Under the pieces are notes generated by a model. It ran no database searches, was not told the DNA's origin, and saw nothing but the letters and a program-made list of their open reading frames with translations. A stretch of DNA of 64,000 nucleotides from NCBI GenBank assembly GCA_937983055.1, contig CALJLA010000211.1:12414-76413 (forward strand), read 5' to 3'. Below, piece after piece: positions 1 to 27,942 of this stretch. The first letter of the stretch is position 1; each line of letters starts with the position of its first letter. This stretch comes from an uncultured Pseudomonadota bacterium. Lineage in GTDB: Bacteria > Pseudomonadota > Gammaproteobacteria > Burkholderiales > Eutrophovitaceae. Both the position numbers and the translations under genes were made by a program.

Positions 1-529
1 GCGATTTCTCCCAGGGTCTGAACACCATCGGATCGTGCACCTCGGCGATCCACGGCAACCGGAACCGCCGCGCCAGCAGGTAGCCCGCCCAGTGTGCCGA
101 GTTGGCGCCGCCGGTGGAATAGATCACCGAGCAACCGCGCTGCCGGATCAGCCGCGCGCCTCGCCAGTAGGCGGGAAACGCCCAGGACCATTGCGGCTCC
201 AGCCGCACGAACAGCTTCTCGATCAGGTAGAAGGGCAGCAACGCAAGCGTCATGGCGCCGACCGCCAGGCGGTAGACCGCCTGCGACCGGATGCGCCGGC
301 GCAGCACATGGCGCAGATCGAAGCGCAGCGCCACCGGCGACAGCGGCAGCAGCTGATGGTGCTCGAGCTTCGCGTCGCGCTGCCCGGTCACCGCGCTGAC
401 CACGATCGGCTCGATGCCTTGTGCGCAAAGATGCGGCATCTTGTCGGTGATGGTCTGGCTGGCCGCCCGCCCGTCCATGTTGAACGCGTGGGATAACACC
501 AGCCAGATGCCTTCAGCGCGCTCCCGCAC
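1..529 (-). CDS. glycosyltransferase, GT-B/GT4-like N-terminal part (3' end lies beyond window start)
   Basis: Hand translation of the minus strand from GTG at 529 gives MRERAEGIWLVLSHAFNMDGRAASQTITDKMPHL...IYSTGGANSAHWAGYLLARRFRLPWIAEVHDP, open to position 1. This resembles a GT4 N-terminal domain. The + strand ORFs 35..496 and 94..399 are R/A/P-rich antisense artefacts. Confidence 0.5.
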   Translation of the reverse strand, partial: MRERAEGIWLVLSHAFNMDGRAASQTITDKMPHLCAQGIEPIVVSAVTGQRDAKLEHHQLLPLSPVALRFDLRHVLRRRIRSQAVYRLAVGAMTLALLPFYLIEKLFVRLEPQWSWAFPAYWRGARLIRQRGCSVIYSTGGANSAHWAGYLLARRFRLPWIAEVHDPMVFRPWEKS

Positions 530-1907
530 GGTTGGCCTTCTCGTTGCGCGCTGACGCACCCAGGAGCACCCCTGACATCAAGATAAATTGCTCGAGAATG
601 TGATCGCGCATGATCGAGTCGACCAGTGAGCGCACTACATACATCAGCACGAGGAATATGAGCGCCCACCCGGCTACATCTGCAGCACCCCGGGTCGCCT
701 TCCATCCGGCCACGATCAGGGTAGCGACAAAACCAAACCAGATCGCCAAGCCCGGAAGCCCAACGTTCAAGCCGAAATCGATTACAGAGCTATGGGCATG
801 CGACATGGCGCCTCGGCCATATCGCTCGATCACTAGATCGCGGAACGTGTGTCGGCTGATCTCCAGACCAAGGGGATGCTCGAGCAGCATGGCCAGACCG
901 ACCTTGGCCCACGCAATACGTTGGTAAGCGGACTCTTCAACCGACTTGCCGTCTGCCGAAAGAGGCAATGCAGAGCCCGGCGGATCCAACCATTGCTGAT
1001 GCTGCTCGGTATCCAGTGCAACCGGCACGGTCCTGACGAACGCCTGCCAGCGCGGATCCCAGTGCACGCCGCCCCACAACACACCAGCAACAACTAACCC
1101 GAGCACAATCCCGAAAGCCGCTCGAACTCGCACGGAGTAATGCCTGCGGGCAGTGATCGCCAAAAAGGCCAGCCCGGCACCGCCAATCCCCAGTGCAACC
1201 ACTATCACGCCGTTCCGGGCGCCCGAAGTAACAGCGGCAGCCGTGCCGAGCAACCCGGCAACGACAATCAGGGCAGAGAATCGGCGCCCGAATGGGAGGA
1301 CCCGATTCGCTTGGACCAACGCGAAGCCGAAGACGACCGGGAGCAGCGTAGAGGCAGCGTAGGTTATGTTGGCCTTATGGTCGCTCAGCCCGGAGAAATG
1401 CGGAGAGATGGCACCTGCCCGCGCAAACTCCACAAGGACAAGAAGAATATGCGCCGCCATCAACGCACACAGCGGCAGGACCACGGCAAACCACATCCGC
1501 CGGCCCGACTCATCACAAGGTTCCGCACGTACGCAGTCAAACGCGGTAAACCCAAAAAGGAATGCGAGGATCACGGGGAGCCATTCGCCCCGCCACTCGG
1601 CCAACGAGGCCGCTGGATCGTCGGCAATGAACAAAGCGACGACAAGCGTCCAGAGAATCACTACGCCGAACATGGCAACCGCCCGCCTGGCATCCGGCGA
1701 CGATTCCTTCAGGAGCGGGAAAAGCAGTGGAGCTACGAGCACAAAGCCGGCAAAAGTCAGCATATTCCGCAACCCGATGACGTTCGGGAGCGAGTAGACG
1801 AGGAGGAGTGTTGCGGTCACGAAACAAACCATGACCGGTCGCCACCGCCGCAAGAACTCGATGGTTGAGCCGGCGCCAAGCGTGCCTTGACGTACGCTAT
1901 CCGACAT
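513..1907 (-). CDS. O-antigen ligase/polymerase-family integral membrane protein (WaaL/Wzy_C-like)
   Basis: 464-aa ORF with many hydrophobic segments and one large hydrophilic loop (DPRWQAFVRTVPVALDTEQHQQWLDPPGSALPLSADGK). It lies in the LPS cluster. The call rests on architecture and context only. Confidence 0.55.
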   Translation of the reverse strand: MSDSVRQGTLGAGSTIEFLRRWRPVMVCFVTATLLLVYSLPNVIGLRNMLTFAGFVLVAPLLFPLLKESSPDARRAVAMFGVVILWTLVVALFIADDPAASLAEWRGEWLPVILAFLFGFTAFDCVRAEPCDESGRRMWFAVVLPLCALMAAHILLVLVEFARAGAISPHFSGLSDHKANITYAASTLLPVVFGFALVQANRVLPFGRRFSALIVVAGLLGTAAAVTSGARNGVIVVALGIGGAGLAFLAITARRHYSVRVRAAFGIVLGLVVAGVLWGGVHWDPRWQAFVRTVPVALDTEQHQQWLDPPGSALPLSADGKSVEESAYQRIAWAKVGLAMLLEHPLGLEISRHTFRDLVIERYGRGAMSHAHSSVIDFGLNVGLPGLAIWFGFVATLIVAGWKATRGAADVAGWALIFLVLMYVVRSLVDSIMRDHILEQFILMSGVLLGASARNEKANRAGAR

Positions 1908-1942
1908 TGAGACCAGACCCGTGGTTACACATCATCACGCAG

Positions 1943-2989
1943 CTACCGTGCACGCAGCCGCCTGAGCAATCGTGCCAGCCGCCAAGCTTTCAGTGACGCA
2001 GCATATCCGATGCCGACAAACAGAATGAATCCATAGAACAGTATCCATTCGGGCACGCCAAAGCGCCACGCCAAAGTCGCGATGCCGGCAAGGCCGATTG
2101 CCATCGCCAAAGCAATGTAGACGACCTCCTCAGGCCGGTATCCGGCCACCTGGAGAATATGGTGCAGATGGTCGCGGCCCGCCGAAAAGGGGCTGCGACC
2201 CTTGCTCAGCCGCCGCAATATGACAACGCCCATGTCCAGTAGCGGGACCGCGAGGTACCACACGGCGACAATGGGTGGCAGACCATTCGTCGGGCGGCTG
2301 ATTTCGACGCTGAACCAGGTCAGAAGAAAGCCAAGCATCATGCTTCCGGAGTCGCCCATGAACACCGTCGCGCGATGCTGCCACGGGAACCGCATATTCA
2401 ACATCCAGAACGCAAGAATAACAGTGGCACAGACGGCGATCAGCTGGAACAGTGCGGTCTGCATGGTCATCAGTGCTGCCATCGCGAAAAAACAGAGCGC
2501 GACAAGGACCAGGCCGCCTGCCAGGCCGTCCATGCCGTCTGTCATGTTCACCGCATTGATGAGGCCAAGTACGCAAATCACCGTGAACGGAACTGCCCAG
2601 TCATGCAGCAGCAATTCCCCAGCACCAAAAAGATCTCCAAGGTTCATGACGGTGACACCGCCCCAGGAGGTCATGAATAGTGCCGCCGCAATCTGAGCAA
2701 TAAGTTTGCGTCGCGGGGACAGGTCTTTCAGGTCATCGAGAAGGCCTGCAATCAGCAGTATCGCAAGGCCGGCAAAAAGGGCTCGGTAGTCATAAAGCGA
2801 CTCGACGATCAGCAGCGCGCCGAAAACCAGCCCACCCATCATCGCGGGACCACCCACCAGAGGGATGGCGCCTTTATGCCGCTTGCGCCCCCCGGGATGG
2901 TCGACCAGCCCGACCGTCAGCGCTGGACGCGCAAGCAGCCGCACGAGCACAACGGTAGACACAAAGACAAGCACAAAATCGAATAGCAT
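1943..2989 (-). CDS. WecA/WbpL-type polyprenyl-phosphate N-acetylhexosamine-1-phosphate transferase (MraY family), paralog 1
   Basis: 348 aa with the motifs AGLLDDLKDL, NAVNMTDGMDGLAGG and VFMGDSGSMMLGF, typical of the MraY/WecA family. Confidence 0.85.
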   Translation of the reverse strand: MLFDFVLVFVSTVVLVRLLARPALTVGLVDHPGGRKRHKGAIPLVGGPAMMGGLVFGALLIVESLYDYRALFAGLAILLIAGLLDDLKDLSPRRKLIAQIAAALFMTSWGGVTVMNLGDLFGAGELLLHDWAVPFTVICVLGLINAVNMTDGMDGLAGGLVLVALCFFAMAALMTMQTALFQLIAVCATVILAFWMLNMRFPWQHRATVFMGDSGSMMLGFLLTWFSVEISRPTNGLPPIVAVWYLAVPLLDMGVVILRRLSKGRSPFSAGRDHLHHILQVAGYRPEEVVYIALAMAIGLAGIATLAWRFGVPEWILFYGFILFVGIGYAASLKAWRLARLLRRLRAR

Positions 2990-3017
2990 GCCGATTTACC
3001 CTGGGCCTGCGGGCTGA

Positions 3018-3446
3018 TCATGCTCTAGGTGACTCAATCTGGGAAACAATGCGTTCGAGCGCTCTTCCGTCTCGGCGCCCAAAGTTACGCATTGAGAAAC
3101 ATTCCAAACCAGCACTGTAGGCGGCACGAAGGTCTCGGTCCTCGAGCAGTCGCGCTATCTGTTCAGTCGCTTCACCCGGCGTAGACACAAGTACGCCCGC
3201 GCCCTCGTCTTCCGGCGCAGGGAAGATTCTGTGCCGATCACCGAGTCGCAGCACAACAGGCAGTACACCCATGGCAGCCGCCTCGGAGAGCACCGTCGAG
3301 TACAGTCCCAGCACTAGCGTCGACACCGTCAGCGCCTCCGCAACGGACGAGTCGACGCTCCTGGTACGAGCACACGGGCAACATGTAATTTGACCAGCTT
3401 CACAGATAACCGCAGTTGGTCCGCGGTGTACAACCGCACGACAGTC
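3018..3446 (-). pseudogene. C-terminal fragment of a GT-B glycosyltransferase (probable remnant)
   Basis: The listed ORF 3018..3326 (GTG start) covers only the last ~100 aa of a GT-B enzyme (STVLSEAAAMGVLPVVL...). The frame stays open upstream only to a stop at 3447..3449 and has no N-terminal domain. It is followed by a ~160-bp AT-richer non-coding gap up to 3606. Confidence 0.45.
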
Positions 3447-3606
3447 CTAAACGCATCGTGCTTACCGTTATATGATTACAATCATTTGCATGTACCACCA
3501 GAAAGTGGCGGTGTGGAATTCAGAATCGGTCACGCTCTATAGTTGCGGTGGAGATTGGTGCCGTCATATTTGACCCGCATTTCGGAAATCCGCGCCGACA
3601 TTAACT

Positions 3607-4452
3607 TCAGTTCGGTAACGCTCGCCGCAATACCTCCCTTACGAAGCGCGCCCAAACTCTTGCAACGTGATAGGGAATCAAAGGCCAGTCGCACGCCAGG
3701 ATTACGAAGGAAGTCCAGTACAAGGGATTCGCATGTGACTTATTCGAAAACACCAGCTTAAGGTACTCACCAAGTTTAGCCACCTTGGAGAAATCCCAGT
3801 ACCCAGATGCGCCCGTGTTCGGTGAATCAAGTACCAGACGATTGTCTGTAATGCATCTAAACCCCTTGCGTGCGGCCCTCATCGTCCACTCGTAGTCTGA
3901 TAGGTAATGAGGAAGGATGTGAGGATGAAAATCACCCACCTGCTTAACAACGGCCCAGCGCACAAAAAGGCCTCTCGTTGAGAGACAGTTGATACTTTCT
4001 GGACTTGTCGCAGTCACAAAATTCAGCCGCCGTACATCGGCATGGACACCGGTTTCAAGAATGCTGCCCGCGCCAGAATCGCGGATTCTTGACAGTAGCA
4101 AGCAATCCGGATTCTCCTGCAGTACACGCATACCAGCGGACAGGAAATCCGGCGCGAAAGTGACATCATCGTTTATGAACAGCACGACATCCGATGACGC
4201 TGGATTAAATTGACGCAGACAGTCGAGCCCCTTTTGCAGGCTGCCTGCCCACCACCATGTACCCGTTCCTCTAATCGCAGTCGCACTTGGGATCGAATTG
4301 AGCACCATTTCGGTGGTTCCGTCCGTCGATCCGTCGTCAATTAAGATCAGGTGAAAATTAGGATACGTTTGGCCGGTGAGGCAATGCACGAACAGCTTTG
4401 TTGTTTCCCTGCGGTTGTGGACCGGGAGCAAGACGTAAATCTTCTCTGTCAT
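3607..4452 (-). CDS. family 2 glycosyltransferase
   Basis: 281 aa with N-terminus YVLLPVHNRRETTKLFVHCLTGQTYPNFHLILIDDGSTDGT (GT-A DxD region). Full-length paralog of ORF 20680..21546. Confidence 0.8.
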   Translation of the reverse strand: MTEKIYVLLPVHNRRETTKLFVHCLTGQTYPNFHLILIDDGSTDGTTEMVLNSIPSATAIRGTGTWWWAGSLQKGLDCLRQFNPASSDVVLFINDDVTFAPDFLSAGMRVLQENPDCLLLSRIRDSGAGSILETGVHADVRRLNFVTATSPESINCLSTRGLFVRWAVVKQVGDFHPHILPHYLSDYEWTMRAARKGFRCITDNRLVLDSPNTGASGYWDFSKVAKLGEYLKLVFSNKSHANPLYWTSFVILACDWPLIPYHVARVWARFVREVLRRALPN

Positions 4453-5399
4453 GCTTTTCGCAGCTCGAAAAGCACCGAATCACCGATACCAGCAATGTCG
4501 AAAGCACGCGTGAGCAGATGATTCACCCGGCTTCGGTGCAATAGAGAAGCAACCTTCACTGCAATTCTCTCGGGCAGAGAGTACCCACCGATGCCAGACC
4601 AGAACGGAGATACTCTCTGCGACCCGCGTCGCGTCGCCAGATGAATCCACTGGTACCTGAGCCACTCGGACTGGGTGATGGTTCCCAACGGCCGGCACTT
4701 CAAGCCCGCTTGCTCCGCCGCAATTTGCATTGACTGCCGCGACAAGAAAGTCAGGTGATACAGTGCCTGCCAGTTTATCCAACGTTGGCGGAAGACTCGC
4801 GCGCCCCAGCCATGCACATTGGGTGTACTCAAGATTGCTACCCCTCCAGGCTTGAGCACTTTTCGGATGCCAGCCATTGTATGTACCGGGTCACGCATGT
4901 GCTCGATTACCTGGTCCAGAGTGACCACGTCAAAGTAACTCTCTGGAAAGTCCGCGGCATCAAAGACGCCAATGGTGACTTTGAAGCCAAAGCGTTCCGC
5001 CACGCGAAGGACGTTCTCGTCTGACTCCACGCCCCACACCTCGCATCCGCGCGAAGCGTGATACCCGAGGGCTTGCCCAAGACCGCTGCCGATATCGAGG
5101 ACACGAACGCCTTGAGGCACCCAACGGAAAGCGGATGCCCGTGCCCCATCCAACCAAGCGGCGAAGCCTCGAATTTCCCGGTGAGGGCGATAGTCATCAA
5201 TGCTCATCGCGCGGCGCGGGTAATAGCTGGTGTAGAGCTGCCTTATTTGCTCATCGGTGAAACCTGCGTTTTCAAGATAGCCATGTCCGCAGGAGTTGCA
5301 CTTATACAATGGAAAAATGCCAGGGTAACCGTAGCGGTCATCGTAAAGGATGAACTGCTCTGACGTATCCGGCCCAGCGCAGATAGGACAGTCACTCAC
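4449..5399 (-). CDS. class I SAM-dependent methyltransferase with N-terminal CxxC...CxxC zinc ribbon
   Basis: 316 aa with CPICAG...CNSCGH followed by VLDIGSGLGQALGY (SAM motif I). Its start overlaps the next gene by 4 nt. Confidence 0.75.
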   Translation of the reverse strand: MSDCPICAGPDTSEQFILYDDRYGYPGIFPLYKCNSCGHGYLENAGFTDEQIRQLYTSYYPRRAMSIDDYRPHREIRGFAAWLDGARASAFRWVPQGVRVLDIGSGLGQALGYHASRGCEVWGVESDENVLRVAERFGFKVTIGVFDAADFPESYFDVVTLDQVIEHMRDPVHTMAGIRKVLKPGGVAILSTPNVHGWGARVFRQRWINWQALYHLTFLSRQSMQIAAEQAGLKCRPLGTITQSEWLRYQWIHLATRRGSQRVSPFWSGIGGYSLPERIAVKVASLLHRSRVNHLLTRAFDIAGIGDSVLFELRKA

Positions 5400-6288
5400 A
5401 GCCCAGAACCATCAGCACGTGATCAGGATCTATCGAGGGCAAACCATCGTATTGACCCCGCACCAATGCTGGGCCAGCCCTTCGCACCACACGGTACCAA
5501 GACTCCCGATACGCTCTGGCCGCATAAGTTCGCACTTTTCGGCGTAGGACGAAATTTCCCGTGCCAAATCTGAAGAAGCGAGTGGATGGAAAGACCACAT
5601 GTTCGGGATAGCGCAGGTACCACCACCTTCCCCGACACAGTCGAGCCGAGATGGACGCGATGTCCCCGGTCAGGATAACTAGCGTTCCGTTTTCGGATAG
5701 CAATTCCCGGCATCTGCGAAAGAAGCCAGGAACGTCGTAAAGATGCTCGACTAGATCGAACGCCGTGATGAGATCAAACTGCCCTTTGACCTGGTCGATC
5801 GCAGAAAAGTATCGGTGTCCCTTCTTCTCGAGAATCTCACGGCATGCAGACGAGTACTCCACTCCCGCCGTGTCGCAGCCAACGGCCCTGAGGAAGTCCA
5901 GAAGCTGCCCCGTGCTGCTTCCGATATCAAGCGCACTGGAGGACTCCTTCGCGCACGCGCGCAGGGTTTCAATAACCTCCCGGCACTTGATGTGCTCGAC
6001 GTTTTCATTCGACCAGCGATTTCCACTTTCCCCGCTGCTGTACATCGCGGCTGCTTGCTCGGGGTGCACCACATTTTGTTTGAACCAAGAACCGCAGTCA
6101 GTACACTTCCAGAGTTCGGACTTGCGACTTGGCGCGATTTCGTGTGTTGAGAAGCCGATGTGCCGAACGACTGGTATTCCCCCGAGCTGACTGATTCGCG
6201 TCGACTCGCAGAGCGGGCAATTATGCCGCCGGAAATCATTGTCGATTGTCTCGATCACCAGAGGCTTCCGCCGCGCTCCCTGGCCCAA
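5392..6288 (-). CDS. class I SAM-dependent methyltransferase with N-terminal zinc ribbon
   Basis: 298 aa with CPLCES...CTDCGS followed by ALDIGSSTGQLLDFL. Same architecture as the downstream neighbour. Confidence 0.75.
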   Translation of the reverse strand: MGQGARRKPLVIETIDNDFRRHNCPLCESTRISQLGGIPVVRHIGFSTHEIAPSRKSELWKCTDCGSWFKQNVVHPEQAAAMYSSGESGNRWSNENVEHIKCREVIETLRACAKESSSALDIGSSTGQLLDFLRAVGCDTAGVEYSSACREILEKKGHRYFSAIDQVKGQFDLITAFDLVEHLYDVPGFFRRCRELLSENGTLVILTGDIASISARLCRGRWWYLRYPEHVVFPSTRFFRFGTGNFVLRRKVRTYAARAYRESWYRVVRRAGPALVRGQYDGLPSIDPDHVLMVLGCE

Positions 6289-7603: not shown

Positions 7604-9948
7604 CTGAGGATCCGGACCTGTTTGTTAGCGCAGTCAATTTCGAGCACTTTGGCCCGCGACCATTCCTGGAAGTAAGCTTCACCGGCACCGATTACGGCTG
7701 GAACGTTCAGTTCCGCGGCACGAATCGCCATGTGAGAATTGACGCCCCCGAACTTTGTAATGAAGCCAACGATGCCCTGCGCGAAGATCCAATCGAATCC
7801 AGGATCGGCACTTGGGATGAGCAAAATCTTTCCCCTGATACCCTCACGCCCCGCATCGGTTGAGGCCACCTCCCCATTCGCTCGGCCGAGCGTGATGAAG
7901 TTCGGCTCCGAACACGGTAGGTGGAACGCAAAGACTTCGTCAGGGGAGGTAATCAGCGGCGGCAGGTTGATACGCTGAGCAATCGCGTAGGCGGACTCGC
8001 CAGCTGACACTGATCTCAGCAGCACTTCGCCCGGGCTCGCGCTCGACGCATACAGATCCTTGATGCACGCAATATCAGAGAACGAGCATTGCTCGACCGT
8101 CAATCCGTGCTGGCGACCAAGTTCCCCGAACTCCACCAGCACATCACTCAGGCTTTTCGTGAAGACAAACTTCGCGTACTCGCGGCCTTCGATTGCACAC
8201 TTGATGAAATCGAACAGCCCCAGCACGTCATGCTCCAGCCCATGCTCGACCAGAAGCGCCTCGGTGCGACGGAGCTGGTCGAGCGACAACACAAATGGAG
8301 CCACGGAAGGGTTCGTGTGTACTGCCGCCTTCTCCCAGTCGAAATAAAGCTCGGGCTTCTCGTCGTATCGAGGAGAGAGGATGTCATATGTGCCCGGGCG
8401 AAGATGACCATAACGCTGCAAAAATTCTGCACGATCCAACTGGTAGTAATCTCGAGCCATGCGCGAGCTCACAGTCTCTAGCGACGCCATAAAGCGCTGA
8501 TAGTCTTCCGGGCTTAGAATGCCCACCGCCACCAGCGATTTCAGTAATTGGACGGCGATGAAGCCTGCGCGGGCCAGTCCGGCGAAAGGGAGCGTTCCGT
8601 AACGCTTGCAGTCCTCGATCAACCAATAGATCTTCGATACGCGTTCTAGGTCGCTTCCCAGTATCGCTGCGCGTCGTGATTCGAGTGCCTGGATTTTTTC
8701 CACGTCCTTCCGCCAGAGACCGCGCTCCCCATGGATAATGCCGTTGGTCAGTCGCCGCAGACTGCCAGCAAAGCCGTCGATCTCCGTATGTGTGAAGCCG
8801 GCTTCGGCGAGAACATTCAATCGCTCAGGGAGGTCCAATGTATAGCACGAGAAGATGATCTCGAATTCAACCTTGTCGTGATAGTTCGGCGATTGGACCA
8901 GGCGATCTATGTAGTAATTAGTCAGCTTTTCCGCCAATGCCGGCTCCACATCCGCGGGGATGAAGGAATTGAAGCTCACGCGCACATCGATGTAGGGTAA
9001 CCCGCCGAAGCTCACCAGCAGCGGAAAGCTGCGCAGGTTCCGGTATCCGTAGTTGTCCCGCTGGTAGGCCCAGATGCTGTCGGTGATCAATTCCTTGTAC
9101 AGCGACAAAGCTAGGGGCCTTGGCCGCACGCCAACGATCTCTGCTGGATTCCAGTCCGGCATGACGCCAAAGACACTTCGAGTGCCGTGAAGGTACGGAT
9201 GCGGGCGCATCATTGCGCGTACCCGTGCGTGAATTCTTTCAAGGGCAATACGATGCGACTCAGAGTCGGCGCAATGCGCAACTGCTGCCCCCAGCGGACG
9301 CACTTGTAGCAGAAACAATTGGCCTTCGGCATCGCATGCAAATTCGACATCAATCGCATCCGTACCGAGCAATGTTTCGAGTTCGCGCACAAGTTCGATT
9401 ACACGGACCAGCGATTGCGGAGCCTTTACGGGGCAATGCTTGCTGAAGTAGAACGTCTTGACGTGGTTAGTCCCTCCGGACGTGACCGTGCCCGTGGAGC
9501 CCGAGCTGTTGTCGTAATTCACCACGAAATAGGGTCCGGCGTTATTCGGATCTATGCTGAAGGCAACGCCGCTCAGCGCGACATTCTCCAGCATGGGCTG
9601 GATGAAGATCTGGTCCTTACCATCGCGTTCACCGTACGAATCGATGACGCGAGCTACCGCAGAGCTCAAAGCCTCCGCGCCGTACACATTGCTCACCGAA
9701 AGGAATTGCCCGGCGAGGCTTCCATTCGCCGCGTCTTCGGAGAGCGCCGATGATCGCACGATGAGCGCTTTATCGAACCAGCCGTGTGCCGCAATGCGCG
9801 CGAGCACTCCGGCCTCGTCTCTCTGCCAAGCCTCGATCGTGAAGCGTTCCTGCGGGAGAACCAATGCCGACCGAACTAGCGGCGCTAACCGCTCCAGCGT
9901 TTCGGCCTTTGTCCCGAAGAGCATCTCTATTTTGCCTGAACGATCCAT
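7600..9948 (-). CDS. PEP-utilising (PPDK/PpsA-like) phosphotransferase; candidate L-glutamine kinase (Cj1418-like)
   Basis: 782 aa. The N-terminus is a PEP/pyruvate-binding ATP-grasp region (IVRSSALSEDAANGSLAGQFLSVSNV). The C-terminus is a mobile His domain (FGGVNSHMAIRAAELNVPAVIGAG, His 44 residues from the end). An alternative ATG lies at 9924. Confidence 0.65.
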   Translation of the reverse strand: MDRSGKIEMLFGTKAETLERLAPLVRSALVLPQERFTIEAWQRDEAGVLARIAAHGWFDKALIVRSSALSEDAANGSLAGQFLSVSNVYGAEALSSAVARVIDSYGERDGKDQIFIQPMLENVALSGVAFSIDPNNAGPYFVVNYDNSSGSTGTVTSGGTNHVKTFYFSKHCPVKAPQSLVRVIELVRELETLLGTDAIDVEFACDAEGQLFLLQVRPLGAAVAHCADSESHRIALERIHARVRAMMRPHPYLHGTRSVFGVMPDWNPAEIVGVRPRPLALSLYKELITDSIWAYQRDNYGYRNLRSFPLLVSFGGLPYIDVRVSFNSFIPADVEPALAEKLTNYYIDRLVQSPNYHDKVEFEIIFSCYTLDLPERLNVLAEAGFTHTEIDGFAGSLRRLTNGIIHGERGLWRKDVEKIQALESRRAAILGSDLERVSKIYWLIEDCKRYGTLPFAGLARAGFIAVQLLKSLVAVGILSPEDYQRFMASLETVSSRMARDYYQLDRAEFLQRYGHLRPGTYDILSPRYDEKPELYFDWEKAAVHTNPSVAPFVLSLDQLRRTEALLVEHGLEHDVLGLFDFIKCAIEGREYAKFVFTKSLSDVLVEFGELGRQHGLTVEQCSFSDIACIKDLYASSASPGEVLLRSVSAGESAYAIAQRINLPPLITSPDEVFAFHLPCSEPNFITLGRANGEVASTDAGREGIRGKILLIPSADPGFDWIFAQGIVGFITKFGGVNSHMAIRAAELNVPAVIGAGEAYFQEWSRAKVLEIDCANKQVRILR

Positions 9949-10691
9949 GCCCTAGTCTTGTACGGTACAGGCACAACGTCTAGGTCGCGTATCTCTTCGG
10001 AGATTGCTTCCATTATCCTCGCAAATCGTTCCGGGCCGGCCTGTGCCTGGATATCGTTAACCGACCGCCATGCCCCGAGGTACCGCTCTTTCGTCATCAA
10101 CTCCTGATGCGGCGCTTCCAGAAAGAGGAGACGATGAAAGTGGCCAGTACTTAACATCGTCTCTTCGATGCCTTGTGTGTATTTTGCGGAACCCGACGAG
10201 ATTCTTGTGATTCCAGGCACCATGTTGTGAATTCGGGCTTCTATCCGTTTGTGCAATTCGCTGTGCTCCAAATCTCTAGGATTCCAGAGCGCCGTGAAAA
10301 AGCCGCCCGGTCTCAAAATGCGGTGAAATTCCGGTAGCGAGAGTTCCGGCTTGGTCCAGTGAAACGAAGAAGCCATCAAAACCCAGTCTACGCAGCGATC
10401 CGGCAGCCCGGTGCATTCTGCAGTTCCCGCGGCCCACTTAAAGGCTTCTGTCGTCGTTCGCTGGTTAATGGCCTCGCTGCGCATCGCAGCGTTGGGCTCC
10501 ACAGCGTATCCTCGCAAACCGAGTTCACAGAGATTCTCGGTGAGCTTGCCCGTGCCGGCTCCTACGTCGGCTACCGTGAATCCTTCCCTGAATGCGCCGA
10601 CGTAAGCGGCAATCGCACCCAGCACTCTCGAAGAGTAACCAGTGCGGTGAATATAATCCTTGGCCAAACTCGTAAAATCTCCACGTTCCAC
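9927..10691 (-). CDS. class I SAM-dependent methyltransferase
   Basis: 254 aa with VADVGAGTGKLTENL (motif I) and a downstream VDWVLMASSFHW segment. Confidence 0.75.
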   Translation of the reverse strand: MERGDFTSLAKDYIHRTGYSSRVLGAIAAYVGAFREGFTVADVGAGTGKLTENLCELGLRGYAVEPNAAMRSEAINQRTTTEAFKWAAGTAECTGLPDRCVDWVLMASSFHWTKPELSLPEFHRILRPGGFFTALWNPRDLEHSELHKRIEARIHNMVPGITRISSGSAKYTQGIEETMLSTGHFHRLLFLEAPHQELMTKERYLGAWRSVNDIQAQAGPERFARIMEAISEEIRDLDVVPVPYKTRAWIVQAK

Positions 10692-10700
10692 AATGGCTCC

Positions 10701-11237
10701 TCACGTAAAAACGAGCCGACCGAACTTTGCAGACAACATTGCCACAATTTCTTCAGGTGTCTTGCCGCCGTCGTTGTCTATGACGAGTTCTGGACTGACT
10801 GGCTCTTCAACTGGCAAATCGACGCCCATCACATCTTTCACCTCACCGCGCAGCGCCCGACTGTAAAGTTGTTTTTGGTCCCGCTCGATCAGCACTTTCA
10901 TCGGCGCGCGCAAGTAGATCTCATGGTAGCCAGGAATTTGGCCACGGTTCCACTCTTGGCATTCGCGAAATAGCGAAATCGTCGCGCAAACCACATCGAT
11001 GCCCTGATCAGAGAGCATCTTGCATAACCTCGAATTGCGCATCGCGCTCTTGAGGCGCTCCTCACGGGAATGGCCCAAGTCATTGCCGAACACTTCGCGC
11101 AGGATGTCCCCGTCGAGGAACACGGAGGCCGGATGGCGCTCGCGCAGCAGTCCAAAAAACAGTCTTCCGATCGTAGTCTTGCCCGCGCCCGACAGACCGG
11201 TGAACCAGAAGACTCTGCCCGTTTTGACATCCATCAC
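10701..11237 (-). CDS. adenylylsulfate-kinase-fold kinase (CysC-like, or Cj1415-like CDP-phosphoramidate 3'-kinase)
   Basis: 178 aa with P-loop VFWFTGLSGAGKTTIG and LDGDILR. It deviates from the canonical CysC LDGDN / FISP motifs as I remember them (DGDI, TISLF here). It abuts the sulfotransferase-fold gene with no gap. Confidence 0.6.
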   Translation of the reverse strand: MMDVKTGRVFWFTGLSGAGKTTIGRLFFGLLRERHPASVFLDGDILREVFGNDLGHSREERLKSAMRNSRLCKMLSDQGIDVVCATISLFRECQEWNRGQIPGYHEIYLRAPMKVLIERDQKQLYSRALRGEVKDVMGVDLPVEEPVSPELVIDNDGGKTPEEIVAMLSAKFGRLVFT

Positions 11238-12362
11238 CTAAGTCCCCGACCCGATCACGCGCCGCACCCGTCGCAACAGCCCTCGTTTCAGGCGCGCTAG
11301 CGGTATCAGCTCCGGATCGGGCGGAACTGTCGAAGGCGTCACCTGAGCAAAACAGTCTCGAATTCGAGATTCTATGCTGGCGAGGTACTCGGCCAGGCTG
11401 GCCTTGAGCTGGGCCAGTTCGTAGGCGGGCAGATTGGCCCGCGTAATGAGGTCAGAATTCAGGGCCATGGCGAAGTCGACGGTTTGGCGAAAAGCGTCTT
11501 CCATAAACGAACTGTTGCCGGCCCGTTCTAGTACTGCAGGATCCAGGGTGACTTGCTCGAAGAATCGCAAGCACGATATGTGTCGTTCAAGAGGAATCGC
11601 AACTTCTTGCATCGCAGGGGAAGGATAGCCGAGCCGAAAGAGTAGGCCGGAGCAAAGTCGTTCGATGCGAGCAACGACACTGGGATCGATTGTTCCCGCC
11701 TGCCATTCCATCGGTCTGCCGGAGCGGTTGATGAGCTGAGCGTCTTCCGGGTGGTCGGCTCGATAGGCACGCTCGGCGGCAGCGGCACGATCAAAGGTCG
11801 AGTTCCGCACGGCTCGATCGACGTCGGCCGTATCAAATTCAAGACCCATCGCATTCAGGACGTTACGGAGCGTCCGCCCGGCGTCCGCCTTGTAGTCTTC
11901 GAATCGCACCACGGTCACCCGCGGGTGAGAGAGCCATCCTTCGTTGAACAGTTTCCAGTTCAAAACCTTGTCTAGCAGAGTATTCACGTCCGGAAACGCT
12001 GCAAACTCGGAAAAACTCAGCTGCGACCCTTCTCGCTTGTAGCGAGAGTAGAGCGCATCGCGCGGGTCCCTTACGAAATAGATGATTTCCGAGCCCGCGT
12101 ATCTATCCGATCTCCACTCGTGCATCCACTGCACTTGAATATCGTCACGGAAATCGAAACTCTCATGGTCGCTCAAGGCGGGCAGCCATTTTCGGAGCAG
12201 GTTTTCATGGGGACTGAGCGACCAACGACCTCTCGCGCGACGCCACATTCCGTCGGGCGAGTAGCGGAAAGTCTTGATTCCCAGCTCAAGTAGGCAGTTG
12301 ATCAGCCATGTCGCCCCCGAGGGCTCTCTTGGCGAGGCGAGATATACCTTTCTGCTAGCCAT
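11238..12362 (-). CDS. sulfotransferase-fold protein with ~150-aa helical C-terminal extension
   Basis: 374 aa. LASPREPSGATWL resembles the 5'-phosphosulfate-binding loop (PKxGTTW). YFVRDPRDALYS resembles the 3'-phosphate-binding RDPRD motif. The C-terminal third is Ala/Leu-rich (AYELAQLKASLAEYLASIESRIRD). Confidence 0.6.
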   Translation of the reverse strand: MASRKVYLASPREPSGATWLINCLLELGIKTFRYSPDGMWRRARGRWSLSPHENLLRKWLPALSDHESFDFRDDIQVQWMHEWRSDRYAGSEIIYFVRDPRDALYSRYKREGSQLSFSEFAAFPDVNTLLDKVLNWKLFNEGWLSHPRVTVVRFEDYKADAGRTLRNVLNAMGLEFDTADVDRAVRNSTFDRAAAAERAYRADHPEDAQLINRSGRPMEWQAGTIDPSVVARIERLCSGLLFRLGYPSPAMQEVAIPLERHISCLRFFEQVTLDPAVLERAGNSSFMEDAFRQTVDFAMALNSDLITRANLPAYELAQLKASLAEYLASIESRIRDCFAQVTPSTVPPDPELIPLARLKRGLLRRVRRVIGSGT

Positions 12363-13614
12363 TGAGCGAAAGGGTCCAATCTGCAGCGAGGTTCACAGCT
12401 CCCCAGCGCCCGTCGAAGGGAATCCCGCTCTTGAACGACGGCAGGACTTCGAACTGCTGGCAATTGTCGACCCACTCCAGAAACGTCGGCTTTTGGTCAA
12501 ATGCGCCAGCGGAAATCGTGTAGTTTCCCGGCATCAAGCCAAGACCACGCGTGCGAAAGGCAAGCCGGAAACGCCCCGGCGCAATCGCGACCGTTTCAAC
12601 ATCACGCTGATGTGAACTAAGCAGCGGCCGTCCGGCGGAATCGAACACGATGAGCCAGAACGAAACTTGCTCTGACGTGCCCGACTCCAGCGTGAACTCC
12701 ACTGAAAAGTCCTCGCCGATCAGGAAGGAGTTTGCAGGCTGACCCTCGCCATTGAATATCGAGGCAGACAGAAACCGCACACGACCGTCACCTCGGTTGC
12801 GCATCGCGGGCGTGATATCGACTGTCGTGTGCTTTTCGGCAACGCGATTGTACTCGGCCACAACTTCCATAGTCGCGCCGACGGACTGAACCGTTCCGAC
12901 CGAAAGAAGGACACATCGATTGCATAGCGCTGCTATGGTCCCCAGGTTGTGGCTGACGAAGAGCACGGTGCGCCCGGACTTGCCAATCTGCTCCATCTTG
13001 GCAAGGCATTTCTTCTGGAATAGCAGATCACCCACGGCGAGCACTTCGTCGACCACGAGGATCTCCGACTCCAGATTTGCGGCCACTGAGAACGCAAGGC
13101 GCACATACATGCCCGTCGAGTAGCGCTTTACCGGCGTGTCGAGGAACTTCTCCACTTCGGAAAAGGCGACGATCTCGTCGAACTTGCGGCGAATCTCGGC
13201 GTTAGTCATTCCAAGAATGGCGCCATTGAGAAAGATATTCTCGCGTCCCGTTAGCTCCGGATGGAAACCTGTGCCGACCTCCAGCAGGCTTGCCACGCGC
13301 CCCCTAATGATCGCCCGCCCGCGGCTCGGGTCAGTAATGCGGCTAAGGATTTTCAGCAACGTAGACTTGCCGGCACCATTGCGACCGATGATCCCGATTC
13401 GCTCCCCTTGCGCCACCTCGAACGAGACATCCTTGAGAGCCCAGAAACGTTCGGTCGAATTCTGGCTCGGGGTCTGCCTTTCGTGACTCGCGCGCCGGAA
13501 CATTGCGCGAACCGAATCGCTCACCACGTCACGAAGCGCGACGTATCGGCGATCCCGCTGATGCCGAATCAGGTACTGCTTCCCCAGCCCTTCTACTTTG
13601 ATTGACCATGCCAT
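12355..13614 (-). CDS. wzt: O-antigen/teichoic-type ABC exporter ATP-binding protein Wzt with C-terminal extension
   Basis: 419 aa with Walker A GRNGAGKSTLLK, signature YSTGM and Walker B ILVVDE. About 170 extra beta-rich C-terminal residues sit where Wzt carbohydrate-binding domains occur. Confidence 0.8.
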   Translation of the reverse strand: MAWSIKVEGLGKQYLIRHQRDRRYVALRDVVSDSVRAMFRRASHERQTPSQNSTERFWALKDVSFEVAQGERIGIIGRNGAGKSTLLKILSRITDPSRGRAIIRGRVASLLEVGTGFHPELTGRENIFLNGAILGMTNAEIRRKFDEIVAFSEVEKFLDTPVKRYSTGMYVRLAFSVAANLESEILVVDEVLAVGDLLFQKKCLAKMEQIGKSGRTVLFVSHNLGTIAALCNRCVLLSVGTVQSVGATMEVVAEYNRVAEKHTTVDITPAMRNRGDGRVRFLSASIFNGEGQPANSFLIGEDFSVEFTLESGTSEQVSFWLIVFDSAGRPLLSSHQRDVETVAIAPGRFRLAFRTRGLGLMPGNYTISAGAFDQKPTFLEWVDNCQQFEVLPSFKSGIPFDGRWGAVNLAADWTLSLNG

Positions 13615-13619
13615 GTGAG

Positions 13620-14447
13620 TCAGATCACGTCCGCGAACGAACGCTCTGTCTGACGAAAATAGATCACACCGGCCGCGAGCATGATCGTCGAGACCAAGAT
13701 GCTGGACACGAGTACTCCGGGGTCGAGAACATAGTTCGGAAGTAGACTCCAGCGGAAGCCTTCAATTATGCCAACCATCGGGTTAAGCGAATAAAGCCAG
13801 CGCCAATGCTCGGGAATAACCGCGAGGCCGAACCCCACTGGCGAAATGAACAAGCCAAACTGAATCATGAAAGGTACAACATAGCGAAAATCCCGATAGC
13901 GCACGTTCAGGGCAGCCAACAAAAGCGTAAGCCCAATTGACACGAGTATCGCTAACACCAGGAACGCTGGTAACAAGAATGCGCGTGGGCTCGGCAAGAA
14001 CTGATACCAGACCAAAAGAACGGCAAGAAGGGCCAGCGAAATGAGAAAATCGACGAAGCTCACGACCACTGCGCTGGCCGGCACAATCAGCCTGGGAAAG
14101 TAGACTTTGGAAATAATGTTTGCATTCTGGATCAGGCTGTTGCTTCCCTCAGAAACCGCATTGGCAAAGAAATGCCACGGCAGCATCGCGCAGAACACCA
14201 GAATCGGATAGGGAACTCCGTCGGAAGGCAGCCGTGCGATGCGGCCGAACACTATGGTGAAGACGACCATTGTGAGGATCGGCCGCAGCACACTCCACGC
14301 CACGCCGATGACGGTCTGTTTATAGCGCACGAGAATATCGCGCCAGGCCAGGAAAGCGAACAACTCGCGGTACGCCCAGAGGTCACGCCAGTAACGACGC
14401 TCGGTGCGGCCTGCCTCGATTACGATTTCCTGTTGGCTACTTGCCAT
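13620..14447 (-). CDS. wzm: ABC-2 type polysaccharide exporter permease Wzm
   Basis: 275 aa with six predicted TM segments. The N-terminus RDLWAYRELFAFLAWRDILVRYKQTVIGVAW is typical of the ABC-2 family, and the gene is adjacent to wzt. Confidence 0.8.
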   Translation of the reverse strand: MASSQQEIVIEAGRTERRYWRDLWAYRELFAFLAWRDILVRYKQTVIGVAWSVLRPILTMVVFTIVFGRIARLPSDGVPYPILVFCAMLPWHFFANAVSEGSNSLIQNANIISKVYFPRLIVPASAVVVSFVDFLISLALLAVLLVWYQFLPSPRAFLLPAFLVLAILVSIGLTLLLAALNVRYRDFRYVVPFMIQFGLFISPVGFGLAVIPEHWRWLYSLNPMVGIIEGFRWSLLPNYVLDPGVLVSSILVSTIMLAAGVIYFRQTERSFADVI

Positions 14448-14761
14448 TCCCGGTCTGCACTAGATTCGTTCAGCTTTCCAGCCTCGCGCTCAATCTCTGC
14501 CAGCTCGCGCTCTAGGCTTTCGTATTCGTCGAGTTTCAACTGCAGAAATCGCATATTGACTCTTGCCTTGTCTTTTATCCCTTTCGGGGTCAAGAAATGG
14601 AGATGCGACGGCTTGCTTTTATTCTGGCTAAAGGTGTCCACTTTTGTCAGCCCGTTCTCTGTGATGGTCCGAGAGAGGCGAACCCCCGCCGATAGTCGCG
14701 CAGGAGCCTGGGCCGCAAACCTCGATAAGCGTCGATCAAGCCGCCAGCGGCCGGCGTCCAT
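14420..14761 (-). CDS. EPS-associated MarR-like small regulator, possibly N-terminally truncated remnant
   Basis: The C-terminal two thirds (GLTKVDTFSQNKSKPSHLHFLTPKGIKDKARVNMRFLQLKLDEYESLERELAEIE) resemble the small EPS-locus MarR family. The N-terminal ~35 aa is R/A-rich, overlaps the end of the wecA paralog, and lies on the high-GC side of a GC break. Confidence 0.4.
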   Translation of the reverse strand: MDAGRWRLDRRLSRFAAQAPARLSAGVRLSRTITENGLTKVDTFSQNKSKPSHLHFLTPKGIKDKARVNMRFLQLKLDEYESLERELAEIEREAGKLNESSADREWQVANRKS

Positions 14762-16575: not shown

Positions 16576-16592
16576 GACAACTTTTCGGCAGT

Positions 16593-18705: not shown

Positions 18706-18733
18706 TGCCCACCCCCCGCATCCTTGGACGACC

Positions 18734-19654: not shown

Positions 19655-19737
19655 AGCGGGCAATTCGCCCGCGACCGCGAGCGCGGCGGCAACACCCGGC
19701 GAGTTGGTAACGCGCAGTTGTTCCACGGCCTCGAATT

Positions 19738-20673: not shown

Positions 20674-20679
20674 ATTTCA

Positions 20680-21546: not shown

Positions 21547-21607
21547 TTCTGGATTGCCCTGGATGGCTTTGCCGGCAATCCCGCGATAGTGCTGTTACGC
21601 CACAAAA

Positions 21608-22570: not shown

Positions 22571-22571
22571 G

Positions 22572-23660: not shown

Positions 23661-23814
23661 GAGTGAGAGCTGGGTTCGTTATACTCCGCCTGCTGAAGCG
23701 TCGATGGACCAAGGACTGGGCCAATGGCGGCGCGCTTCCGGGGCGAGTGGCGCCGATTCTAGACAATTACCGTCTGCCCGAAAAGAAAATCTCTTTGGTT
23801 GTCTGAACAGGGAA

Positions 23815-26264: not shown

Positions 26265-26265
26265 A

Positions 26266-27501: not shown

Positions 27502-27639
27502 CACGCGCGACCACCAGTCAACGACGGACGTGGGGCATGAGGAAGGGCGCCGCGGACGGCATCCGGGTGCCCGGTAAGCCAGCCATTGCCCGGTCACGCG
27601 CGCTCAAAACGCCGGTCATGGCGAATGAGGCATGCGCAG

Positions 27640-27884: not shown

Positions 27885-27942
27885 GGCGCCACGCGCCACA
27901 GCGCATCCCGAGAGGCCGCGGCATCGACGCGCACGCCTGCCT

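Follow-up and report, generated by a model that had tools for sequence, protein, structure and literature searches.

Within a 64,000-nucleotide (nt) stretch of DNA from an uncultured Pseudomonadota bacterium (contig CALJLA010000211.1 of assembly GCA_937983055.1, positions 12,414 to 76,413 of the forward strand; hereafter the window), a block at 536..~14700 is set off by a low content of guanine plus cytosine (GC) from the high-GC lipopolysaccharide (LPS) glycan locus around it. At a probability of roughly 0.6, we read this block as an acquired patchwork, an 'export plus end-decoration' module for an O-polysaccharide whose export depends on an ATP-binding cassette (ABC) transporter. Its genes join a Wzm/Wzt exporter, in which Wzt bears a carbohydrate-binding domain (CBD), to a candidate pathway for the phosphoramidate donor known from Campylobacter jejuni and to a sulfotransferase-fold protein (ST). 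That part of an O-antigen locus should be low in GC and horizontally exchanged is ordinary; the donor pathway within a module of this exporter type, together with a dedicated ST-fold enzyme, appears to be an undescribed combination, and the content of the block is more interesting than its composition.

The composition of the window was measured in several ways. GC in 1-kb windows was 0.52-0.59 across about 1.5-15 kb and 0.62-0.73 in most of the remaining window. Change points, determined by optimal partition of 100-bp bins after the window had been lengthened 4 kb leftward with the 99.95%-identical contig L092, divided the DNA into three segments (-4064..535, GC 0.685; 536..14635, GC 0.568; 14636..63935, GC 0.649), a result unchanged at penalties x6 and x12. 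GC at third codon positions (GC3) was 0.648 +/- 0.036 for block genes (n=13), 0.849 +/- 0.029 for host genes (n=14) and 0.757 +/- 0.034 for the genes at 14.7-21.5 kb (n=6), three strata without overlap (block versus host, Mann-Whitney p = 1e-5, ranges disjoint), and tetranucleotide z-scores correlated at 0.76 between host segments and at 0.39-0.46 between block and host. An earlier sequence-only reading had proposed a lower-GC block inside a high-GC glycan locus and had suggested sliding GC, codon and tetranucleotide profiles as the check; GC, GC3, tetranucleotides and change points all bear the proposal out, with sharp steps at 536 and 14636, the latter confirming the right border that had been placed at about 14.7 kb. 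A separate step that had been expected at about 3 kb was not found, the left step lying at about 0.53 kb, where the border at 513-535 coincides with the stop of the Wzy_C gene and the start of the next glycosyltransferase (GT) gene. The portion at 0.5-3 kb, which had been called intermediate, is indeed marginally higher in GC (0.59-0.61) than the remainder of the block, and no step divides it off; hand-counted values of 42-58% for single lines are noise around a mean of 57%. Two further claims hold: the genes from 23660 leftward are all on the minus strand, including 4 kb beyond the window start, and the block is embedded in a long glycan 'super-cluster', with glycan genes in both flanks.

The right junction lies inside a damaged gene. 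The product of orf113 (14420..14761, minus strand) is a remnant of a degenerate winged helix-turn-helix (wHTH; HTH_24/MarR-like) regulator, in which the transition falls at ~14636-14736. From residue ~36 onward, it aligns to the 117-amino acid (aa) wHTH regulators of three related loci (L001, L089 and L090); its N-terminal 35-40 residues are unrecognisable as a wHTH, with six recognition-helix residues deleted, and no HTH family of Pfam matched it, as compared with HTH_24 at E 2.5e-16 in the L001 homologue. Homology to the relatives at the nt level ends at 14664-14667, GC jumps from 0.50-0.55 to 0.70, and the start of orf113 overlaps the stop (14736) of the upstream wecA-like gene, copy B. On the left, the Wzy_C gene runs to its stop at 513 and overlaps a GT4 gene of host composition, which starts at 529. 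Of the scars that had been claimed for both borders, the right one is thus confirmed, while the other, at 3018..3606 on the minus strand, is an internal seam of the block and not a border. This seam consists of a 102-codon open reading frame (ORF) at 3018-3326 and a 280-bp non-coding gap at 3327-3606; a C-terminal remnant of a GT-B enzyme is weakly suggested for the ORF by sub-threshold matches to two families at their C-terminal ends, Glyco_trans_1_2 at E 0.0057 and Glycos_transf_1 at E 0.057. No gene is called at 3018..3606 in L092, and 2990-3650 gave neither a tblastx match to any fetched locus nor a promoter or terminator consensus.

The arrangement suggests that the module integrated downstream of resident glycosyltransferase genes in the O-polysaccharide locus of LPS. 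Because the DNA-binding half of its regulator has been destroyed, the module probably owes its transcription to read-through out of resident genes that lie upstream and share its strand; a single ops/JUMPStart core is present in the window, on the wrong strand and at chance level. Searches for tRNA genes and repeats and domain scans of the ORFs revealed no convincing integrase, insertion sequence, tRNA or flanking repeat in the window, and the block does not class as a genomic island in the sense of an integrative element. Since no mobility marks were found, 'recombination' is a default inference, not demonstrated, and the mechanism was presumably the homologous or illegitimate recombination that is usual for O-antigen loci.

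Comparison with other loci revealed both the spread of the module and its mosaic make-up. Its 12-gene order (wHTH regulator, Wzm, Wzt, ST, the kinase APSK, a methyltransferase, the kinase GlnK, an amidotransferase-fold hydrolase (GATase), a nucleotidyltransferase, two methyltransferases and a GT2) was found in at least five diverged lineages (L001, L088, L089, L090 and L175). Six metagenome contigs from soil or rhizosphere (L001-L006), uniformly of 57% GC, carry manC|gmd-fcl followed by the 12-gene module, and contigs of the L001 type match window 6450-14664 in one 8.26-kb high-scoring segment pair (HSP) at 75% nt identity. Closest overall is L175, a 184-kb contig of flat 60% GC that also has the heptosyltransferase/manC|gmd-fcl frame, with 80% nt identity over 10768-14667 and with 86% identity for Wzm and 88% for Wzt (both aa) and 81% for GATase. 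Altogether, the nearest relatives are soil contigs of 55-60% GC, with 75-80% nt identity in HSPs of 3.9-8.3 kb and 84-88% aa identity for GlnK, Wzt and APSK (GlnK, 84-86% to L001, L008 and L175). Among the named genomes listed, the sole close GlnK (85% aa) lies on a 5.9-kb contig binned as Terracidiphilus sp., and GlnK of the other listed species representatives (Acidobacteriota, Planctomycetota, Pseudomonas, Azospirillum, Paenibacillus and more) reaches at most 60%. The module has a GC of 66% in L089, 60% in L175 and 55% in L090, in L089 and L175 equal to that of its own flanks, and its copies match the GC of their own contig in each lineage, the window excepted; since the same module is at 66% in L089 and 60% in L175, low GC is not intrinsic to its genes.

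Along the block, the closest relative changes from gene to gene. Identity at the nt level to L175 and L001 is 78-85% and 67-70%, respectively, for Wzm-Wzt (14361-12362) and 68-82% and 50-65% for GATase, the nucleotidyltransferase and the methyltransferase MT4 (7561-5162); for the methyltransferase MT3 (10761-9962), it is 82-83% to L001 and 42-48% to L175, which has a non-homologous UbiE-type methyltransferase in the slot. At the protein level, MT3 is 89% identical to that of L001 and 33-35% identical to the non-orthologous UbiE-type enzyme in the slot of L175, L088 and L090. At the distal end of the GT2 gene (3961-3607), nt identity is 51% to L175 and to L001, and it drops to ~50% against all relatives. 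The block is a patchwork, and a clean single donor was rejected on account of this per-gene mosaic. Judged from its sequence and that of its relatives, the block is very probably foreign, and the earlier proposal that an export and modification module was acquired horizontally into an existing glycan locus finds support in composition, relatives, synteny, the truncated regulator and the host-frame relative L102 described below; the phosphoramidate content had not been recognised.

The modification part of the block centres on four genes of the minus strand. GlnK (7600..9948, 782 aa), an L-glutamine kinase homologue of Cj1418 type with a PPDK_N domain and a swivelling phosphohistidine (PEP-utilizers) domain, scored 961 bits over its full length against NF004508/PRK05849 (cutoff 501), which we take to be the Cj1418 family, and JGI names many of its homologues 'glutamine kinase'. 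APSK (10701..11237), a kinase with the fold of adenosine 5'-phosphosulfate (APS) kinase and a candidate Cj1415-type cytidine diphosphoramidate 3'-kinase, scored 195 bits against NF004041/PRK05541 (cutoff 127) and 125 bits against the canonical apsK model TIGR00455, below its cutoff of 138.7. GATase (6995..7603), a hydrolase of class-I glutamine amidotransferase fold (Peptidase_C26, E 3.4e-25) and a candidate Cj1417-type gamma-glutamyl-CDP-amidate hydrolase (CDP, cytidine diphosphate), has the model of that activity, NF045546, as its best NCBIfam match (E 1.6e-33, 116 bits). The fourth gene (6255..6998) encodes an NTP_transf_3 nucleotidyltransferase (E 1e-19), a candidate Cj1416-type CTP:phosphoglutamine cytidylyltransferase (CTP, cytidine triphosphate) whose closest PDB match is the CTP:phosphocholine cytidylyltransferase 1jyk. 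The catalytic motifs are intact, namely GGVNSH739 with the swivelling His in GlnK, GVCRGMQ and WHPE with the Cys and His in GATase, and the P-loop in APSK; PDB sequence searches found no solved structure of the Cj1415-1418 type. Between both kinase genes lies MT3 (9927..10691, minus strand), which is dependent on S-adenosylmethionine (SAM; Methyltransf_11, E 8.5e-15).

The association of these genes was evaluated in 80 species-representative loci with a GlnK homologue, which do not include the genome of the window and in which GlnK has as neighbours APSK in 76 (adjacent or fused), the nucleotidyltransferase in 76, GATase in 73 and an MT3-like gene in 68. Because these neighbours recur across the 80 loci, we regard the four- to five-gene cassette as a conserved functional unit, complete in the window. 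Fusions of GlnK with APS_kinase, ~930-1016 aa in length, are frequent among the homologues (loci L010-L060) and are a Rosetta-stone link between the first and last pathway steps. Relatives of GlnK were found in at least 592 stretches of species-representative genomes and match more than 7,000 protein clusters. In C. jejuni, glutamine, ATP and CTP are the substrates from which Cj1415-1418 produce CDP-phosphoramidate 3'-phosphate, the presumed donor for the O-methyl phosphoramidate (MeOPN) of the capsule (PMC11800397; PMC6429109). By homology and the strictly conserved clustering, the four enzymes of the block would likewise use L-glutamine, ATP and CTP to form 3'-phospho-cytidine-5'-diphosphoramidate, which is isosteric with 3'-phosphoadenosine 5'-phosphosulfate (PAPS), and one of the three methyltransferases may O-methylate the phosphoramidate to methyl phosphoramidate. 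That the block makes a nucleotide-activated phosphoramidate is thereby predicted as likely.

Two loci display the cassette in other forms. In Pseudomonas taiwanensis xwS3 (L034, NZ_QJRF01000064.1, 4176-18184), a GlnK-GATase-nucleotidyltransferase-APSK-methyltransferase cassette stands in a flagellar region, with FlgI, FlgJ, FlgK and a flagellin-like gene upstream and DegT, an FdtA/hexapeptide acyltransferase and a Glyphos_transf-family protein downstream, a context that suggests phosphoramidate on a flagellin glycan and another type of transferase. In a Bacteroidetes metagenome-assembled genome (MAG; L174, JACRAL010000168.1, 12453-15567), no amidotransferase or hydrolase gene lies between GlnK and the nucleotidyltransferase; the module there, of 33-43% GC, begins with a Wzz/tyrosine-kinase-like gene.

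The ST gene (11238..12362, minus strand; Sulfotransfer_1, E 1e-7) lies between APSK and Wzt, and its product carries a helical C-terminal extension of 130 residues that ends in a basic amphipathic helix. An AlphaFold (AF2) model built from 44 homologues had a mean confidence (pLDDT) of 89.6. In a Foldseek search of the PDB, it gave 98 matches at E <= 0.001; the 50 listed have probability 1.00, and these best 50 of the 98 are all sulfotransferases dependent on PAPS or on 3'-phosphoadenosine 5'-phosphate (PAP), or the retinol dehydratase that shares the sulfotransferase fold, and most of these structures contain PAP or PAPS. Identity to solved sulfotransferases is 12-19%, and no NCBIfam model matched. 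The 3'-phosphate-binding motifs R98/S106 and R213-S-G215..W220 are invariant or nearly so in the 44 homologues, aligning to R130...S138 and RKGxxGDW of SULT1E1 in what we take to be its reference sequence, and His81 is conserved in the family. ST thus shares with the PAPS-dependent sulfotransferases of Sulfotransfer_1 the fold, the motifs RxxxDxxxS and RxGxxxxW and the conserved His, and differs from them in its extension, in its linkage to the cassette in the contexts seen and in its 5' loop: the P-loop-like PSGATW is invariant in the family, and by inspection lacks the canonical Lys of PKSGTTW at the equivalent position, in a region that hhalign left unaligned at the N terminus.

The ST family is of modest size: at 50% identity, it comprises 265 representatives when the threshold is E <= 1e-30 and 668 when this is relaxed to E <= 1e-10, and it is annotated 'sulfotransferase domain-containing' or 'hypothetical' and nothing else. 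In every homologue whose context was examined, ST stands directly beside APSK-MT-GlnK. This includes three homologues picked independently of GlnK, from Pelagibius sp. CAU 1746 (43% identity), a 36%-GC Bacteroidetes MAG (41%) and L175 (74%), all of which have ST, APSK, a methyltransferase, GlnK and the nucleotidyltransferase adjacent, together with Wzm and a Wzt with Wzt_C. Conversely, the cassette occurs without ST in ~76 of the 80 loci and with it in 2-4. As the cassette is often found without ST, and ST, in the contexts examined, always beside the cassette, ST needs the cassette and is not itself required by it, the one-way dependence expected if ST consumes the product of the cassette. The presumed product, 3'-phospho-CDP-amidate, is isosteric with PAPS, and Cj1415 is homologous to APS kinase. 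Gene association and the retained 3'-phosphonucleotide motifs suggest that ST uses 3'-phospho-CDP-amidate and places the phosphoramidate on a sugar of the lipid-linked glycan; for transfer of phosphoramidate rather than sulfate by ST, we put the odds at even or slightly better.

The principal competing explanation, which we consider unlikely, is that ST is an ordinary PAPS-dependent sulfotransferase that sulfates the O-polysaccharide with PAPS from the APS-kinase-like enzyme or from the host, phosphoramidate, if made, being attached by the GT2 or an unrecognised protein or sent to a different target. The Sulfotransfer_1 score above the Pfam cutoff, the listed structural matches, the kept 3'-phosphate-binding motifs and the APS-kinase fold of the neighbouring gene product all agree with sulfation, and the Glyphos_transf-family protein that accompanies the cassette of P. 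taiwanensis in place of ST indicates that other transferase types exist. Against this, APSK accompanies GlnK with or without ST (76/80 versus 2-4/80) and is often fused to it, and its scores fall below the canonical apsK cutoff and above that of PRK05541; the three ST homologues picked independently of GlnK all adjoin APSK-MT-GlnK; the block has no CysD or CysN genes for sulfate activation; the Lys of the 5'-phosphosulfate loop is, by inspection, not at its place in PSGATW; and without ST the module would have no candidate transferase for its own donor.

The export part of the block comprises Wzm (13620..14447, minus strand; ABC2_membrane, E 4e-23), an ABC-2 permease, and Wzt (12355..13614, minus strand), an ABC-transporter ATPase (ABC_tran, E 5e-20) with a C-terminal CBD (Wzt_C, E 2e-12, residues 273-393). 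Together, they are predicted to export the finished chain. Initiation of the chain would fall to copy A of the WecA-family enzymes and its ligation to lipid A-core to the Wzy_C protein. A CBD-bearing Wzt implies a capped O-antigen system, for which the known caps are methyl, (methyl)phosphate and 3-deoxy-D-manno-octulosonic acid (Kdo) (PMC9445017). The alignment of Wzt with Aquifex aeolicus Wzt (8DKU/7K2T, E 1e-65) spans the whole protein and takes in the CBD, and the lid Trp of the methyl pocket is kept (W381). Among the block genes, Pfam revealed no WbdD-like or Kdo-transferase terminator, and the candidates for cap enzymes are ST and the three methyltransferases.

Across the lineages, the transporter, the phosphoramidate pathway, ST, MT4, MT5 and a GT2 are kept together. 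The shared retention of transporter, pathway and ST suggests that (methyl)phosphoramidate is itself the cap, as a P-N analogue of the methyl phosphate of O9a, and the CBD of Wzt would probably read such a terminal cap, speculatively phosphoramidate or an O-methyl sugar. As an export-licensing cap, phosphoramidate is a tentative proposal from the gene content; it is just as possible that a plain O-methyl group forms the cap and that phosphoramidate is a side decoration. The most far-reaching version, in which methyl phosphoramidate is both the non-reducing-end terminator and the ligand of the Wzt CBD, is installed by a new class of ST-fold transferases and belongs to a unit that moves between phyla, is one that we rate as possible and well short of probable; the taxa concerned would be Beta- and Alphaproteobacteria, Bacteroidetes and Acidobacteriota-like soil bacteria, an extension that we hold with the same reserve.

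The history of the locus was assessed with L102, of flat 63% GC, which is the sole informative relative of the host frame, distant but syntenic (aa identity to the window: WaaA 66%, GT9 64%, manC 71%, gmd 86%, fcl 72%). Its frame, WaaA-GT9-manC|gmd-fcl, is followed by a Wzx-type flippase and then, in window order, by GT2c (59% aa), a methyltransferase (64%), a GNT-I-like gene (unk330, 72%) and TylF (67%); no Wzm, Wzt or cassette was found within 10 kb in L102. The INTERMEDIATE segment was considered jointly with the polarity of the insertion, L102 being the informative comparison. Because L102 has the frame and those genes and no module, the 14.7-21.5 kb genes are favoured as the older, resident-type part of the locus and the low-GC module as the newcomer, which holds the only exporter now in view. 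Between its fcl and GT2c genes, L102 has, at 6336-7676, the gene of the Wzx-type flippase (Polysacc_synt) and one more methyltransferase gene, where the window has a 61-bp spacer (21546-21608). Since a spacer stands where L102 has its flippase, the exporter that belonged to the resident part appears to have been lost.

The polarity could also be the reverse: fcl-HTH-Wzm-Wzt-...-GT2 would then have been present first, and a 6.9-kb segment (14736-21546, GT2c...WecA-B) would have been inserted later, truncating the regulator. The regulator directly follows the fcl-like gene in L001, L090 and L175; the fcl-like gene of the window (21608-22570) is itself block-like, an isolated low-GC islet (GC 0.588, GC3 0.673) with the host-like gmd (GC3 0.854) on one side and the intermediate segment on the other; WecA-B overlaps the 5' end of the regulator with its own 3' end; in L175, which shares the GT9/manC|gmd-fcl frame, the GC of the module equals that of the contig; and in L088 and L175, the module is followed shortly downstream by homologues of the GNT-I-like and TylF genes. 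Yet the genes at 14.7-21.5 kb are closest (59-72% aa) to the same-order genes of L102, their GC3 of 0.757 is nearer to the host than that of the block is, and stringent change-point penalties group the DNA from 14636 onward with the host, while fcl, at 71-74% identity to all candidates, does not discriminate. We therefore prefer the module as the later arrival and judge the reverse order to be improbable, at a level comparable with sulfation by ST. Under either polarity, the locus is built from parts with different histories.

That the block is a long-resident part of the locus, its low GC reflecting AT-shifted, weakly expressed and fast-evolving O-antigen genes, has little probability. A GC below that of the genome is classical for O-antigen loci, the adjacent 14.7-21.5 kb is also under host GC3, and mobility genes, tRNA and flanking repeats were not found. 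However, the changes in composition are abrupt in 100-bp bins and a degenerated gene contains one of them, the module has 66% GC in L089 and 60% in L175, the per-gene identities form a mosaic with respect to different lineages, and the module is also present in Alphaproteobacteria, Bacteroidetes and Acidobacteriota-labelled contigs. A chimeric MAG contig of two organisms, conceivable for a metagenome assembly with so sharp a composition contrast, is very improbable: the block is flanked left and right by host-like sequence, at each junction the reading frames continue and genes overlap, and a second assembly record, ENA ERZ869938 NODE_165 (75.9 kb), which spans -4 kb to +33.7 kb of the window, contains both block borders at 99.94-99.95% identity without gaps.

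Several points weigh against the reading of the block as an acquired export and end-decoration module. With regard to acquisition, GC below that of the genome is common enough in O-antigen loci to arise without transfer; the nearest relatives reach 75-80% nt identity and no higher, too low to point to a donor, and the Acidobacteriota label comes from one 5.9-kb contig assigned by binning. The manC metagenome scan (best match 71%) turned up no close relative of the host that lacks the block, and for this reason the polarity and timing of the insertion are inferred. A single insertion does not explain the fcl-like islet, and the history comprised more than one step, because the islet is separate and the 14.7-21.5 kb genes lie below host GC3. 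With regard to chemistry, the product of the module is predicted from genes alone; the 116 bits of GATase are below the curated NF045546 cutoff of 250, and the nucleotidyltransferase is assigned at the domain level only, with no equivalog model match. The modelled sulfotransferase fold would suit an ordinary PAPS-dependent sulfotransferase equally well. Finally, compared with Aquifex, the predicted CBD pocket keeps W381 and lacks both His residues of the cap site, and the comparison favours no particular cap.

In Campylobacter, MeOPN serves phages as a receptor, helps to determine serum resistance and bears on vaccine design. Compared with the MeOPN genes Cj1415-Cj1422 of C. jejuni, the block shares clustered homologues of Cj1415 and Cj1418 and candidate counterparts of Cj1416 and Cj1417, with SAM methyltransferases alongside (compare Cj1419 and Cj1420); the known MeOPN transferases of C. 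jejuni are Cj1421 and Cj1422. The two systems differ in that the target here, as the genes indicate, would be a Wzm/Wzt O-polysaccharide of LPS in a betaproteobacterium and there is a Kps-type capsule; moreover, the candidate transferase here is sulfotransferase-fold, the gene order is different and phase-variable tracts are absent. With the WbdD-Wzt systems of Escherichia coli O9a and Klebsiella O3, in which the CBD of Wzt recognises a methyl-phosphate group at the chain end, the block has in common Wzm and a CBD-bearing Wzt, putative WecA-type initiation, predicted phospho and methyl chemistry encoded beside the transporter, and a guanosine diphosphate (GDP)-mannose pathway at the edge; it differs from them in lacking a WbdD-like kinase/methyltransferase fusion and in the proposed P-N linkage, made by an ST-fold enzyme, in place of P-O, at a putatively terminal position. 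The best solved homologue, matching over its full length, is WzmWzt of A. aeolicus (7K2T/8DKU), whose cap is a plain O-methyl sugar (3-O-methyl Man/Rha); W381 is shared, whereas the cap-site residues His350 and His355 are not kept here and three residues are deleted. In Pseudomonas syringae, the 'TET operon' of the common polysaccharide antigen (CPA), a transport/termination/polymerisation operon, is exchanged within a frame of sugar-precursor genes and is discordant with the core phylogeny (PMC7820976). The block resembles it as an export/termination unit swapped horizontally within a conserved frame, and differs in the wider reach of the exchange, between classes or phyla, and in the phosphoramidate pathway that comes with it, with no tRNA or integrase nearby.

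Reviews describe MeOPN and its glutamine kinase as Campylobacter-specific (PMC6429109; PMC9561416). In the literature searched, the only mention outside Campylobacter was a structural annotation in archaeal Borg elements, although the primary Raushel papers may comment on distribution, and nothing relevant was found that joins phosphoramidate with Wzt, O-antigen or sulfotransferase. The donor pathway is, in the genomes compared here, widespread beyond Campylobacter, and a recurring architecture couples it to an O-antigen ABC exporter and an ST-fold enzyme. The phosphoramidate transfer step is still unsolved in C. jejuni (PMC12409886; PMC11800397), and because transfer to sugar is biochemically unsolved, the small soluble ST-fold protein is a tractable candidate for the transferase; Pelagibius sp. 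CAU 1746 (GCA_039839785.1) is a cultured carrier of the module, which lies at 666-687 kb of JBDOQT010000002.1. Furthermore, the locus illustrates cleanly how an O-antigen locus can have its export/termination part replaced as a module across lineages, and the scar in the regulator is still visible.

The remaining genes of the block, all on the minus strand, lie downstream of the cassette. MT4 (5392..6288; Methyltransf_23, E 5.6e-21) and MT5 (4449..5399; Methyltransf_23, E 1.8e-19) are SAM-dependent methyltransferases, MT4 with 76% aa identity to its counterpart in L175 and 46% in L001, and MT5 with 72% in L088, 68% in L175 and 45% in Pelagibius. The conserved final gene of the module encodes a GT2 glycosyltransferase (3607..4452; PF00535, E 2.5e-17), which has the lowest GC of the block (0.517) and is 48-51% identical (aa) to the same-position GT2 in L001, L088, L089, L090 and L175 and 42% in Pelagibius (L173). 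Beyond the seam follow WecA-family copy A (1943..2989; PF00953, E 7.5e-36), a polyprenyl-phosphate N-acetylhexosamine (HexNAc)-1-P transferase, and, as the final block gene, the WaaL-like membrane protein of the Wzy_C O-antigen ligase/polymerase family (513..1832; PF04932, E 2e-9; GC3 0.69), which has 439 aa in L092 and no NCBIfam match. Copy A is 59% identical (aa) to WecA copy B (14736-15824), so that one of these paralogues lies inside and one outside the block; their TIGR02380 scores of 246 bits (copy A) and 229 bits are both below the cutoff of 326. The GT2 gene at 3607-4452 likewise has a paralogue outside the block, at 20680-21546 (44.5% aa), and a 16-nt match between 1953-1968 and 14782-14797 corresponds to the homologous 3' ends of both wecA genes. 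The ORF of MT5 is intact in L092, where the public gene call overlooks this 316-aa methyltransferase at 4449-5399 and gives an opposite-strand ORF of 70 aa instead (L092 7966-8178, equal to window 4812-5024); because of this omission, the public annotation of the block is incomplete. Look-ups of the GlnK and GT9 proteins of the window by exact sequence gave no match, probably owing to differently annotated start codons.

Outside the block, the remaining window consists of core chromosomal genes, including glnA, an ntrC-like gene, valS, lptF/G, pepA, trpE, thiC, waaA and a heptosyltransferase gene. ThiC is 85-87% identical to proteins from MAGs of Burkholderiales/Betaproteobacteria and from Pelomicrobium; on the basis of these Burkholderiales-like relatives, the host is an uncultured betaproteobacterium of ~65% GC. 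To the left of the block are GT4-family, Methyltransf_21, DUF6492 and GT2 genes with host-like GC3 of 0.84-0.88. To its right, resident glycan genes of intermediate GC (14736..21546, minus strand; WecA copy B, GT2, GT1, a TylF O-methyltransferase, the GNT-I-like gene, a methyltransferase and GT2c, by Pfam; GC3 0.757) are the upstream frame and lie outside the block. They are followed by the fcl-like gene (21608-22570, minus strand; 469 bits against the GDP-L-fucose synthase model NF047922, cutoff 500), by gmd (22572-23660, minus strand; GDP_Man_Dehyd, E 8e-156) and by the divergent manC (23815-25233, plus strand; ManC domains), with the heptosyltransferase gene and waaA beyond. Together, manC, gmd and the fcl-like gene point to a polymer with a 6-deoxyhexose or mannose, as predicted from the gene set; an assignment of 21608-22570 as 'rmd' was rejected, since NCBIfam groups the gene with GDP-L-fucose synthase.

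Three long ORFs had no Pfam match, at 39546-42968 (plus strand, 1140 aa), 26251-27597 (minus strand) and 18702-19745 (minus strand). At least the latter two are shadow ORFs in the wrong strand or frame, as is usual for high-GC DNA, and were rejected: the true gene at 26251-27597 is waaA on the plus strand, and 18702-19745, with GC3 below the GC of first codon positions (GC1), gives way to the GNT-I-like gene at 18734-19726. Beyond the glycan region, GC dips to 0.57-0.59 at 33000-34000 (upstream of glnA), at 48500-49500 (near lptF/G-pepA) and at 54500-56000 (an MFS_3 transporter gene beside a porin gene). The window and ERZ869938 NODE_165 differ at 19 positions, which are not dispersed and are bunched in short patches (810-866, 4743-4767, 19038-19039, 26094-26101, 27633-27656 and 30842-30847); such patchy differences between the two assemblies could be strain microdiversity or consensus artefacts.

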